Source: Candidatus Woesearchaeota archaeon (GTDB lineage Archaea; Nanobdellota; Nanobdellia; SCGC-AAA011-G17; UBA489). From it: a stretch of 64,000 nucleotides of DNA. A program made the translations under genes and the position numbers. Under the pieces are notes generated by a model. That model saw only the letters and a list, made by a program, of their open reading frames with translations. It searched no databases and was not told the origin of the DNA. The stretch spans positions 279-64,278 of the forward strand of contig CAYFOE010000004.1 in NCBI GenBank assembly GCA_964344635.1, read 5' to 3'. Shown in pieces: positions 18,209-19,532 of the stretch (within the stretch, counting starts at the first letter, position 1; every line of letters starts with the position of its first letter).

Positions 18209-18236
18209 ATAAAAAAAAGAAATGAGGTGGAAAGGG
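18209..18236 (-). terminator. Pyrimidine/U-rich terminator and 3' UTR of the 18244-19515 gene
   Basis: Minus strand reads CCCTTTCCACCTCATTTC followed by a T8 run; shares CCCTTTCC with the S-layer terminator. Confidence 0.6.
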
Positions 18237-19532
18237 AGAAGTTTTACTTCTTCTTTCCTTTGATTAATGCATATCCAATAATCAAGATGATAACGATTAC
18301 TGCAAGAGTAACTGTTAATCCGCTCTTGGATTCTACATATTCAGATTCTTCTTCTGCTTCTTCTGTAACGTCTGATGTTTCTTCATCAACAGCTTCAGCT
18401 TCAACAGGTACGCTAATTTGCTTAAAGGTTAAATCTGCGTAAGTGTTTACGAATAGTTTATGGAATGTAACCTCTAGGTCAGATACTCCATCACCATTTA
18501 CATCAACTTCTTCAGATTCGCCTGCAGCAATTGTAACGTCGAAAGGTTCAGATGAAATTGTTAGAACAACATCTTCAGCTGTAACAGCCTTAACTTCGAT
18601 CTTATGTGTTTCTCCACTTATATCGAACTTGATTGCTCCATTCTCATTCATAAGTCTGCTTTCACCTTCAGTAGTCAATCTTCCACCGTCTGAAATTGTT
18701 CCAGATCCGATTTTGATCTTACCTACAGGATTTTCCCATCCCTCAATTATTGCTACGTTGCTTCCACCAACACTTGAACCTGTGCCAATAACTACAGATT
18801 GTGTTGTGAAGTTCAGTACAGTACTAGCACTGTTTCCAGCATTATCTTGTACAAAACAAATAACACTAAATGTTTCTATCTCTCTAGTATGATCTTTAAC
18901 AATCTCAGTAATGATTGCTGTAGTAGAGTTAGTTGATAGTGTTAAGTTATTATCGTAGGCAGTTAGTCCAGGATACATAACAGCAACATATGTTTTACTA
19001 ATATCAATATTTGCAGTAGCATCTGTAGGTGTACAGTTAATATTCATATCTTCACCGTAATCTAGTTTCAACGAACCAGTTAGGTTATTTCCATCATCAT
19101 CTGTGAATTCAAGATTTGCAACAGGATTAGTTGTATCTAGGTTTACAATATTTGCAAGGCTTGTTGTAGCTACTGTATTATTATTCATAGTAACTGTAAC
19201 ATTCAAAGTATAGTTATTATCTGTACTGAAATTGCCTGAAAGAATTGTTTCGTTAAAGAAGTAATCATTAACACTTCCATTTGTTTGATTTGAGACATTT
19301 GTCCATGTTGTCCCTGCATCACTTGAAATGTAAAATGTTGCCCAAATCGCATTATCATTGTTAAATGTTACATTAACAACAACATCTGATGCAGAATTCA
19401 CATAACTTGCAGTTGCTGCAGGTGTATCTATTGTAACTTGTGCTGATACTGTCATAGCACTTAGAATCACAAATAAGCCTAGAATTAAAAGGCCTGTAAC
19501 TTTTTTCATATTCATTTATCTTTCCACCCCAT
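18222..19532. repeat. 13 bp inverted repeat pair flanking the surface-protein gene
   Basis: ATGAGGTGGAAAG at 18222-18234 vs CTTTCCACCCCAT at 19520-19532; 12/13 match, the mismatch is G-U in RNA. Confidence 0.7.
18244..19515 (-). CDS. Asn/Thr-rich, C-terminally anchored surface glycoprotein
   Basis: Signal peptide ending VSA|Q; about 14 N-x-S/T sequons in the first ~235 aa; acidic linker; C-terminal TM followed by KGKKK. Confidence 0.85.
   Translation of the reverse strand: MNMKKVTGLLILGLFVILSAMTVSAQVTIDTPAATASYVNSASDVVVNVTFNNDNAIWATFYISSDAGTTWTNVSNQTNGSVNDYFFNETILSGNFSTDNNYTLNVTVTMNNNTVATTSLANIVNLDTTNPVANLEFTDDDGNNLTGSLKLDYGEDMNINCTPTDATANIDISKTYVAVMYPGLTAYDNNLTLSTNSTTAIITEIVKDHTREIETFSVICFVQDNAGNSASTVLNFTTQSVVIGTGSSVGGSNVAIIEGWENPVGKIKIGSGTISDGGRLTTEGESRLMNENGAIKFDISGETHKIEVKAVTAEDVVLTISSEPFDVTIAAGESEEVDVNGDGVSDLEVTFHKLFVNTYADLTFKQISVPVEAEAVDEETSDVTEEAEEESEYVESKSGLTVTLAVIVIILIIGYALIKGKKK

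Follow-up and report, generated by a model that had tools for sequence, protein, structure and literature searches.

Results

Organization of the locus

The window, that is, the whole 64,000-nucleotide stretch of DNA that was analysed, carries on its minus strand a gene (gene 1) for a probable surface protein, together with the promoter, leader, trailer and terminator elements collected in Table 1. The first-pass annotation had called the product a surface glycoprotein, a label that is reasonable because the protein combines a signal peptide, 14 N-X-S/T sequons and a C-terminal membrane anchor; the anchor is invariant and the protein ends in KGKKK. Neither Pfam nor NCBIfam provided a family for it, an exact-protein look-up returned no identical protein, and Rfam at gathering thresholds identified tRNAs alone within the window.

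Table 1. Coordinates of gene 1 and its associated elements (positions of the window)
Feature	Position	Strand	Sequence or remark
Predicted archaeal promoter	19591..19605	minus	BRE-like AGAAAGC (19605-19599) and TATA box TTTATATA (19598-19591)
Inferred 5′UTR, ∼53 nt	19516..19568	minus	placed from the TATA position
Leader arm AUGGGGUGGAAAG (written ATGGGGTGGAAAG)	19532..19520	minus	followed by ATAA, then ATG at 19515
SD core GGGGUGG, inside the leader arm	19530-19524	minus	7 bp with the genus 16S 3′ end GAUCACCUCCU
CDS of gene 1, 423-aa surface protein	18244..19515	minus	signal peptide, 14 sequons, C-terminal anchor GLTVTLAVIVIILIIGYALIKGKKK
Local hairpin across the stop codon	18229..18258	minus	GGAAAG.AGAAGU-AAA-ACUUCU..CUUUCC; z = −3.1
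Stop codon TAA	18246..18244	minus	next 9 nt are AACTTCTCC
Trailer arm CUUUCCACCUCAU (written CTTTCCACCTCAT)	18234..18222	minus	anti-SD-like copy, complementary to the leader arm
U8 run, predicted archaeal terminator	18211..18218	minus	starts 3 nt past the trailer arm

It had also been claimed that a leader element covering the Shine–Dalgarno (SD) sequence and ending 4 nt before the start codon is complementary, over 13 bp with one G-U, to a trailer element about 9 nt after the stop. Both elements are found at exactly these minus-strand positions: the leader arm is separated from the ATG by a 4-nt gap, and the 13-bp leader–trailer duplex contains a single G·U, between G4 of the leader and U10 of the trailer arm. 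The trailer arm has CACCUC in common with the 16S 3′ end and is followed by TTC and the T8 run (18218..18211). The 16S rRNA is missing from the source assembly, and the anti-SD sequence was taken from congeners.

The BRE/TATA element is situated ∼83–76 nt upstream of the ATG, and its sequence, AGAAAGCTTTATATA, is invariant or nearly so in all aligned orthologs (the G004/L078 variant being AGAAACATTTATATA). Judged from the TATA position, transcription of gene 1 would start near 19568. Archaeal transcription terminates at oligo-T. Since the U8 run begins 3 nt past the trailer arm, the arm should form the extreme 3′ end of the transcript, and the order of arm and then T-run (or G+C hairpin and T-run) is common to all relatives. 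The conserved BRE/TATA element and the U-run after the trailer thus suggest that both arms are carried by one monocistronic mRNA. A further TATA-like sequence, AATATAAATATAA, at −34..−22 could in principle give a leaderless gene 1 transcript devoid of the SD arm.

The hairpin that spans the stop codon shares part of its 3′ arm with the first 6 nt of the trailer; it therefore competes with the long-range duplex, which it would precede during transcription. In the G004/L021 type both hairpin arms are changed and yet still pair (AAAGGGU...ACCCUUU). The gene 1 trailer does not have the arrangement of a bacterial-type intrinsic terminator (G+C-rich hairpin, 0–2 nt, U-run); along the mRNA, 10 nt separate the end of the hairpin from the U8 run, and this spacer consists of the anti-SD core ACCUCAUUUC. 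A conserved 5′-proximal hairpin in the leader appeared plausible by eye and was dropped, as RNAalifold gave no consensus and single-sequence folds were no better than those of shuffled sequences. Two other roles for the trailer were rejected: as an antisense small ORF or plus-strand SD it has no suitably spaced start codon, nor is the short frame conserved, and as a promoter of the downstream arsC it would be tied to a neighbouring gene that varies among relatives while the trailer stays.

Rarity of the complementarity

Leaders (30 nt before the start) were scored for duplex formation against trailers (40 nt after the stop) for 672 genes of the 658-kb genome, with 20,130 mismatched leader/trailer pairs as the control. 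The gene 1 pair scores −21.4 kcal/mol and ranks third of the 672, a score matched by 0.035% of the mismatched pairs, which corresponds to 0.23 expected per genome against three observed. The earlier view that such complementarity is improbable by chance is therefore borne out by the genome-wide comparison of SD regions with 3′UTRs that it had called for, in which the background rate is low. The pairs ranked first and third are both SD/anti-SD pairs, and both belong to signal-peptide proteins with a C-terminal anchor. A degenerate form of the 13-mer has only the two arm sites in the 64 kb (0.17 expected), and two matches were obtained in none of 100 shuffles. CCACCTC occurs within 50 nt after the stop in the gene 1 trailer only (1 of 672), a distribution that rules out a background origin from pyrimidine-rich terminators. 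The mean score of own leader/trailer pairs (−7.24) is the same as that of mismatched pairs (−7.25), so a genome-wide habit of 5′/3′ complementarity was discarded and the pairing appears to be a device of two genes rather than a general rule.

Conservation of the pairing in orthologs of gene 1

Relatives were gathered through genome searches, one metagenome scan and protein searches; two scans of genome contigs gave none. The follow-up originally suggested, a search for the pairing in orthologs, gave a consistent result: every ortholog with an SD leader retains the pairing over 9–13 bp (∼12 genomes and contigs, at 42–63% protein identity; G008, G003, G002, G007, G004, L013–L016, L018, L021/L078 and L077). 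The UTRs of gene 1 are conserved above the coding sequence in the ortholog alignment, with 62–98% identity for the 5′UTR and 54–70% for the CDS. Within the leader arm GGGTGGAAA shows no variation across orthologs, and the core CCACC(U)C of the trailer arm is present in every relative within the clade. Flanks and terminator are wholly different in the G004/L021 type, yet UCCACCUCAU is retained and pairs with AUGGGGUGGA.

A column-based count of covariation was abandoned because MAFFT loses the register of paired indels, and covariation was assessed instead by duplex prediction for each genome and by permutation of own against cross leader/trailer assignments. The arms of gene 1 vary only by GU/AU and GU/GC changes, by a single, isolated A-U to G-C swap and by a double change in L077, where both terminal partners are altered to an A·A non-pair; G007 has lost the two outer pairs of the duplex. 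The own assignment ranks 42 of 720 permutations; the arms are nearly devoid of informative variation and offer no clean compensatory substitution. Pairing is absent from gene 1 homologues outside the clade and from L079, though promoter and SD are present.

A second gene with the same arrangement

The unbiased genome-wide scan also identified gene 2 (C2:73837-75144), which encodes a putative S-layer-like protein and in which AGGGGGGUUAAC pairs with GUUAACCCCUCU, again with a U-run. Its trailer fits the bacterial-type intrinsic terminator pattern, and its C-rich arm at the same time supplies the 3′ side of a hairpin resembling a terminator (AGAGG..CCUCU). The complementarity extends into the loop of this hairpin (UUAAC), where it covaries with the leader, matched indels included. 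In G002 a 1-nt deletion in the leader (GGUUAC) is matched by one in the trailer (GUAACC), G001 combines a C-G to U-A swap with the paired loss of a G·U, and G007, L072 and L075 have GU/GC swaps. In the permutation test the own leader/trailer assignment comes first of 120 with five lineages and ranks 468 of 40,320 with eight, and the trailer has its own leader as best partner among the ∼670 leaders of the genome. In nine other genera gene 2 has promoter and SD but no pairing, with a partial exception in G010, which has TAACCCC in the trailer and an own pair of −17.8 kcal/mol. The lack of pairing in outgroups of both genes that nevertheless have promoter and SD means that a trailer arm was gained at clade level against a pre-existing leader. 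Mismatches inside the helices of both genes are all G·U on the sense strand, with zero A·C. Two unrelated envelope-protein genes carry the predicted pairing, with natural compensatory changes in gene 2.

Folding and nuclease inventory

Full-length partition-function folds (1.34–1.43 kb) gave duplex pair probabilities of 0.7–1.0 in nine mRNAs (among those folded were gene 1 of G000, L013, L018, G007 and L021, and gene 2 of G000, G001 and G002). The duplex is therefore predicted to be thermodynamically dominant, in equilibrium folds that leave aside ribosomes and kinetics over 1.3 kb. The genome encodes no RNase III domain (PF14622); it encodes one aCPSF1-like beta-CASP protein and the exosome subunits Rrp41 and Rrp42.

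Discussion

A proposed base-paired clamp on surface-protein messages

The retention of the pairing among relatives and its presence on a second surface-protein gene indicate that the arms are probably a real device that closes a surface-protein mRNA end to end. We favour, with moderate confidence and from comparative sequence evidence, the reading that the arms of gene 1 constitute a selected 5′UTR–3′UTR duplex masking the SD, of the kind described for icaR and hbs. The first-pass annotation had proposed end-to-end pairing that gates ribosome access or stability. The part of that idea in which an SD leader pairs with a 3′UTR anti-SD copy is supported by the orthologs, the covariation in gene 2, the restriction of mismatches to G·U and the folds; that the duplex forms in vivo, and in which direction it acts, we infer.

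According to this proposal, the transcript would start ∼53 nt before the ATG at the conserved BRE/TATA element, carrying a strong G-rich SD, and would end at the U-run right after a C-rich element located ∼10 nt beyond the stop. Once transcribed, the C-rich element would pair with the SD and its flanks over 9–13 bp, compared with 7 bp for the SD/16S pairing, closing the mRNA end to end and hiding the ribosome-binding site. Messages free of ribosomes would presumably be kept closed and be initiated less readily, and in the closed form their 3′ end may be less accessible to the 3′–5′ exosome. Initiating ribosomes would vie with the trailer arm for the SD, while a ribosome terminating 6–11 nt upstream of that arm would briefly undo the clamp. 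The same device seems to have arisen in the same clade on a second, S-layer-like mRNA, which points to a lineage-specific tuning of the expression or stability of abundant envelope messages, the products of genes 1 and 2 presumably being abundant envelope proteins.

Alternative explanations

Complementarity could also be a by-product of a strong extended SD and a pyrimidine-rich pre-terminator, each independently constrained and not selected for pairing. A stop-spanning hairpin plus T-run is indeed the usual 3′ design of both gene families, family-wide, even where the leader is not complementary, and the CUUUCC of gene 1, like the C-rich arm of gene 2, belongs to a local hairpin. Consistent with independent constraint, trailers survive without a matching leader in mosaic genes (L019 and L024, the latter identical to L022, for gene 1; L074 for gene 2), and a secreted-protein gene, C1:107394, has a near-identical leader, CCATGAGGTGGAAC, without a matching trailer. 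We nevertheless consider this explanation unlikely. The local hairpin does not include the core CCACCUC, which is placed between hairpin and U-run, where a terminator needs nothing; the core is unique among the 672 trailers and persists in the G004 type in spite of the different flanks and terminator. Moreover, the hairpin loop UUAAC of gene 2 covaries with the leader down to matched indels, and outgroups have a strong SD, hairpin and T-run yet lack the complementarity.

Inverted repeats acting in DNA were envisaged by the first-pass annotation as remnants of a cassette, and could also be recombinase sites that invert the CDS (phase variation) or inverted copies of a protein-binding site under concerted evolution. 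The arms do form 12–13-bp inverted repeats bracketing exactly the surface-protein CDS, matched arm changes are also expected for sites of one recognizing protein, recombination has been active in both genes (mosaics L019, L024 and L074), and elsewhere in the genome a Fur-like regulator is bracketed by a perfect inverted repeat of 14 bp (C8:9153-9530), a clear DNA-level example. Against an inverton, the genome encodes a single tyrosine recombinase, a candidate for the universal Xer type, and no serine recombinase, hence none that is dedicated, and ∼30 independent assemblies of both genes have one orientation relative to the promoter. One arm is an SD placed at the right distance before the ATG, and sense-strand G·U pairs are persistent, one being kept in seven of nine genomes; such a pair is neutral in RNA, but in DNA repeats it is a mismatch. 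This asymmetry points to RNA, and together with stable synteny and the recombinase inventory it leaves the DNA-level reading, including the cassette remnants, very unlikely.

UCCCC motifs of staphylococcal regulatory RNAs regulate the SD regions of other mRNAs in trans. By analogy, the anti-SD copy, in the mRNA or in a 3′UTR fragment, might titrate or regulate the SD of other messages, its pairing with the own leader being incidental. For the gene 1 trailer, the leader of a different gene for a surface protein (C2:63733-64935) scores slightly better (−23.7) than the own leader (−21.4), the trailer also pairs well with the C1:107394 leader, and trans targets could not be excluded by the authors of the icaR study (PMC3868564). 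The complementarity is not limited, however, to the generic SD core and takes in flanks specific to each gene (AU...GGAAAG in gene 1, UUAAC in gene 2), none of the ∼670 leaders suits the gene 2 trailer better than its own, and the arms of gene 2 co-vary within each lineage; action in trans therefore appears highly improbable.

Relation to known systems

The closest real precedents for an SD-masking duplex are bacterial. In Staphylococcus aureus icaR, a 3′UTR UCCCCUG pairs with the mRNA's own SD region, UAGGGGG, as proven by compensatory mutations (PMC3868564). Gene 1 shares with icaR a C-rich 3′UTR anti-SD motif facing the SD of the same mRNA, here over 13 bp, and the masking of the ribosome-binding site established for icaR is what we propose for gene 1; natural covariation in gene 2 is the analogue of the compensatory mutations. 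However, icaR is bacterial whereas the present case is archaeal (DPANN) and known from sequence alone, the icaR 3′UTR extends over hundreds of nt whereas the gene 1 element is located ∼10 nt past the stop and right before the terminator, and icaR is a low-level regulator whereas genes 1 and 2 presumably encode abundant envelope proteins. The icaR duplex serves as a substrate of RNase III; this enzyme is not encoded here, so the likeness extends at most to SD masking and not to the decay route.

In Bacillus subtilis hbs, a 14-nt 5′/3′UTR interaction of −19 kcal/mol is located just upstream of the terminator (PMC5737220). The leader–pre-terminator duplex of gene 1 is of the same kind in length and energy (∼13–14 nt and ∼−19 to −21 kcal/mol across the two), and the gene 1 and 2 messages are presumably highly expressed, as is that of hbs. 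End protection and coupling of stability to translation, demonstrated for hbs, may by analogy apply here. The 5′ arm of hbs overlaps an RNase Y site whereas that of gene 1 overlaps the SD itself, and the nucleases concerned are bacterial (RNase Y, RNase J1 and PNPase), in contrast to the aCPSF1-like beta-CASP protein and exosome of the present genome. Also in B. subtilis, pyrimidine-rich aSD-like sequences reach the RBS from hundreds of nt downstream and pair with it in vivo, reducing translation and favouring decay (PMC12697547, preprint), so such distances are no obstacle. Those sequences were synthetic insertions and are depleted from natural genes, whereas here an extended copy is conserved, which implies that the copy is wanted.

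The haloarchaeal precedent originally invoked, a functional interaction of 5′ and 3′UTRs in translation control, holds in that regulation needs both UTRs together in an archaeon, but no base pairing was reported (PMC2636863). Haloferax largely dispenses with SD use at its 5′UTRs (PMC3986360). No archaeal case of leader–trailer base pairing was found in the literature searched, and experimental proof of such end-to-end pairing of an mRNA is so far confined to bacteria. For an uncultured DPANN lineage with tiny genomes, which is still beyond experimental manipulation, the two genes thus provide a concrete hypothesis of post-transcriptional control that is defined at the sequence level. They also advise caution to annotators, since a C-rich motif that is conserved immediately ahead of an archaeal terminator may have a regulatory role, and a simple leader-against-trailer duplex scan with a mismatched control can detect such elements genome-wide.

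A more elaborate form of the clamp would be a base-paired closed loop on the major envelope-protein mRNAs of these archaea, in which the 3′ arm, within reach of a terminating ribosome, holds the SD until a finishing ribosome melts the clamp, so that termination licenses re-initiation on the very message just read, idle ones staying locked and nuclease-resistant, an arrangement that would have evolved twice in one DPANN clade. Melting would free the SD beside the released ribosomal subunits. We regard this extension as speculative and quite improbable; if true, it would correspond, with RNA alone, to the cap/poly(A) closed loop of eukaryotes. In every lineage the trailer arm lies 6–11 nt past the stop codon.

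Results

Gene 1, the focal gene, encodes a 423-aa product that combines a signal peptide and 14 N-glycosylation sequons with a C-terminal membrane anchor whose last residues are KGKKK; neither Pfam nor NCBIfam assigns it a family. The first-pass annotation described a 13-bp pairing between the Shine-Dalgarno (SD) side of its leader and an anti-SD-like element of its trailer, and that account is exact, the same coordinates, spacing and single G·U being recovered here. The focal genome (G000) is assembled to 658 kb in 39 contigs, with 36% G+C and 95% completeness; the sources of homologs are named either 'Candidatus Woesearchaeota archaeon' or 'Nanoarchaeota archaeon'.

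Positions of the features discussed (in the window unless a contig, C or L, is named)
Feature	Position	Strand	Sequence	Remarks
Gene 1	19515..18244	-
Leader arm	19532..19520	-	ATGGGGTGGAAAG	13 nt; 4 nt separate 3' end from ATG
Trailer arm	18234..18222	-	CTTTCCACCTCAT	complement of leader arm with one G·U; begins 9 nt past TAA; then TTC and T8
C-terminal 26 residues, gene 1	18247-18324	-	GGLTVTLAVIVIILIIGYALIKGKKK
arsC-like gene, start	18199			11 nt past U8 run
Gene 2	C2:73837-75144			outside window; L026 1498-2805, minus strand
Secreted-protein gene	C1:107394-109469		CCATGAGGTGGAACTATG (leader)	outside window
Fur-like regulator gene	C8:9153-9530			outside window

Base composition upstream of starts shows a TATA-like peak at ∼-27 for many start codons (leaderless genes), and SD-led genes are a minority. 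The focal assembly lacks a 16S gene, and the anti-SD was taken from congeners, whose 16S ends in GGAUCACCUCCU; the leader arm could thus pair over 7 bp with the ribosome (two G·U) versus 13 bp with the trailer, and CACCUC is common to the trailer arm and the rRNA tail. At L041 and L042, loci of two species of the genus (G005 and G007), 16S matches cover 2.2-2.3 kb, whereas the model is 1.48 kb long and congeners span 1.47 kb, which implies large, intron-like insertions.

A degenerate 13-mer of the arms occurs only at the two focal sites in the window (0.17 expected). Among 674 long ORFs called in the genome, 672 were scored by the best duplex that the 30 nt upstream of the start could form with the 40 nt downstream of the stop. 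Mean energy was -7.24 kcal/mol for own pairs versus -7.25 for mismatched pairs, and complementary ends are therefore not a general habit of this genome. Gene 1 ranks third at -21.4, a value reached by only 0.035% of 20,130 mismatched pairs, or 0.23 per genome, compared with 3 observed; CCACCTC lies within 50 nt past a stop only in gene 1. The pair thus stands above background in the genome-wide comparison that the first-pass annotation had proposed, and a supply of chance matches from pyrimidine-rich terminators, which it had considered, does not explain it. The second-ranked pair is of a different type, a C-rich leader stretch pairing with an SD-like TAGGAGG past the stop. The fourth is an A+T-rich inverted repeat, perfect over 14 bp (ATTCTCAATAAGAA / TTCTTATTGAGAAT), in the leader and trailer of a Fur-like 125-aa regulator, and is most simply read as two operator copies, one for this gene and one for the next.

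Genome search, one metagenome scan and protein look-ups gave ∼12 distinct gene 1 orthologs with both ends (42-63% protein identity). Their untranslated regions are better conserved than the coding sequence (5'UTR 62-98%, 3'UTR 71-82%, CDS 54-70% identity). All keep the block GGGTGGAAA and, ∼83 nt upstream of ATG, an invariant or nearly invariant AGAAAGCTTTATATA (AGAAACATTTATATA in G004/L078) that reads as an archaeal BRE plus TATA. In the focal gene, an A+T-rich stretch closer to the start (-34..-22) might serve as a TATA box and yield a leaderless mRNA. G007 does not conserve this stretch but does conserve the distal promoter and the SD.

Leader and trailer arms of gene 1 in related genomes (G) and loci (L)
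Lineage	Leader	Trailer	Pairing
G000	AUGGGGUGGAAAG	CUUUCCACCUCAU	13 bp
G008, L013, L015	GGGGUGGAAAG	CUUUCCACCUC	11 bp
G003, L016	GAGGUGGAAAG	CUUUCCACCUC	11 bp; G·U to A-U
G002/L018	GAGGUGGAAAG	UUUUCCACCUC	11 bp
G007	GGGGUGGAA	UUCCACCCU	9 bp, plus lineage-specific second helix AGAGGA/UCUUCU
G004, L021, L078	AUGGGGUGGA	UCCACCUCAU	10 bp
L077	GAGGUGGAAA	UUUCCACCUC	10 bp

Pairing in orthologs, which the first-pass annotation had suggested as a check, is kept at 9-13 bp across the tabulated lineages. The arm always starts 6-11 nt past the stop. In the G004 type the stop-to-arm sequence and the terminator (a separate GC hairpin) differ, yet the arm is kept; in L077 both terminal partners have changed, to A·A. 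With few informative differences among the arms of gene 1, own-versus-cross pairing ranks 42/720.

Gene 2, which ranks first in the scan, appears to be a second, independent case of leader/trailer pairing. It is single-copy in 25/25 genomes of the family, and its 435-aa protein has a signal peptide and a C-terminal anchor. Ig-like domains (NPCBM_assoc/FixG_C) are also present, and a 'putative S-layer protein' model matches below threshold. The leader arm AGGGGGGUUAAC, made up of the SD and its flank and lying 7 nt upstream of ATG, pairs with the trailer GUUAACCCCUCU, which starts ∼10 nt past the stop and is followed by U9. In G002 the leader lacks one A (GGUUAC) and the trailer one U (GUAACC), and an unbroken 11-bp helix is kept. 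In G001 (AGGGGGUUAAUU versus AAUUAACCCCCU) one C-G pair has been replaced by U-A, one U·G has become U-A, and both arms have lost the G·U position; G007, L072 and L075 have moved or removed the G·U. For five lineages the true trailer-leader assignment has the best summed energy of 120 permutations; for eight, 468/40,320 permutations are equally good. The changes lie partly within the loop of a local terminator-like hairpin, and that hairpin is therefore no explanation for them. The changed motifs relate as reverse complements rather than as copies (GTTAC versus GTAAC), which argues against a single protein-binding word occurring at both places in one orientation. Helix mismatches in both genes are all G·U on the mRNA strand and never A·C, as selection at the RNA level would predict.

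Partition-function folds of modelled full-length mRNAs (inferred transcription start to U-run end, 1.34-1.43 kb) gave long-range helix pair probabilities for gene 1 of 0.90-1.0 (G000), 0.83-0.99 (L013), 0.95-0.98 (L018, core), 0.74-1.0 (G007) and 0.87-1.0 (L021), and for gene 2 of 0.87-1.0 (G000), 0.78-0.96 (G001) and 0.71-0.84 (G002); such equilibrium values leave aside ribosomes and the hairpin-first order of folding during transcription. When the 3' end of gene 1 is folded alone, the first six trailer-arm bases instead join a stop-codon-spanning hairpin (z = -3.1), which recurs family-wide with varying sequence and constant pairing. This hairpin is a real competitor of the long-range duplex and would form first during transcription. 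Across the archaeal family, genes of both surface-protein families usually end in a stop-spanning hairpin that runs directly into a T-run, as in AAAGACGA-UAAUU-UCGUCUUU (L054-L069; L009, L012, L053), a bacterial-looking terminator design.

Gene 2 orthologs from nine other genera retain the promoter, UTR start and GGGGG SD, with own leader/trailer energies of only -3 to -13 kcal/mol; G010 departs from this in part (TAACCCC in the trailer, own pair -17.8). CCACCUC is absent from gene 1 homologs outside the clade and from the syntenic outgroup L079, which have the stop-spanning hairpin plus T-run. Since outgroups lack the pairing though the SD leader pre-exists, the trailer arm was gained in one clade, in two genes; the gene 2 pairing is already present in the more distant contigs L075 and L076 (53-56% identity).

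Recombination appears to shuffle these surface-protein genes. In the mosaics L019, L024 (=L022) and L074, the anchor and trailer in the 3' half come from one gene type and the promoter and N-terminal part from another. L019 and L024 have a gene 1 3' end with the arm, no GGGGUGG leader and a leaderless-type promoter, as on a paralog family, next to a tRNA; in L074 a foreign 5' half precedes a 3' end that is identical to that of gene 2 in G008. L024 and L078 share a downstream flank and 88.5% identity across the 3' 1,065 nt, and the 5' part of L024 was therefore replaced fairly recently. The chance of 13 unchanged bases at this identity is ∼0.2, and its unchanged trailer arm would prove little. 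Counting against the pairing, the mosaics show that a trailer can persist without its partner, at least for some time.

Discussion

We favour, with moderate confidence, the existence of a selected RNA duplex. Were the pairing a pure by-product of a strong SD and a pyrimidine-rich terminator, three observations would go unexplained, namely the uniqueness of the motif, the position of the arm outside the hairpin and the covariation in the gene 2 loop. DNA-level inversion of the segment between the arms is unlikely: the genome encodes no serine recombinase and one tyrosine recombinase, presumably of the universal Xer type, all assemblies show a single orientation, and the G·U asymmetry points to RNA. 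It is possible that the trailer arm acts in trans, as the arm of gene 1 would pair about equally well with two other leaders. The gene on contig C1 for a 691-aa secreted protein has a leader nearly equal to that of gene 1 and 11/13 complementary to its trailer; its own trailer has no complement. Gene-specific flanks and lineage-wise co-variation, however, point to pairing in cis.

If it forms, a cis duplex covers the SD and, as follows from this anatomy, must compete with 30S binding; beyond SD masking, the mechanism we propose draws on bacterial precedents. In icaR the 3'UTR UCCCCUG masks the gene's own SD UAGGGGG (PMC3868564), and in hbs a 14-nt, -19 kcal/mol leader/trailer helix right upstream of the terminator limits nuclease attack (PMC5737220). 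In vivo, anti-SD-like sequences affect ribosome-binding sites from hundreds of nucleotides away, and selection normally disfavours them (PMC12697547, preprint). The focal duplex may work like both systems. It is not a full member of the icaR mechanism, because the genome encodes no RNase III and the icaR decay route is thus not applicable; the nucleases encoded include an aCPSF1-like beta-CASP enzyme as well as subunits of the exosome. Access of the exosome would plausibly be impeded by a helix lying 3 nt from the 3' end, and an arm within reach of the terminating ribosome suggests that translation itself could open the clamp. The haloarchaeal precedent named in the first-pass annotation (PMC2636863) holds for a functional UTR interaction, but complementarity is not reported there. 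The open-access literature searched yielded no example of an archaeal base-paired SD/3'UTR clamp; the case made here is built on sequence analysis.

Downstream of the trailer, the arsC-like gene (18199 and 18211-18243) lacks both an SD and a TATA-like sequence at -26, and its expression may rely on read-through out of the surface-protein gene; in other relatives a different gene follows the same trailer. The C-terminal 26 residues of the gene 1 product are near-invariant (one I/V difference) in six orthologs otherwise 42-62% identical (the window and L002-L006), a candidate lineage-specific anchoring or sorting signal.
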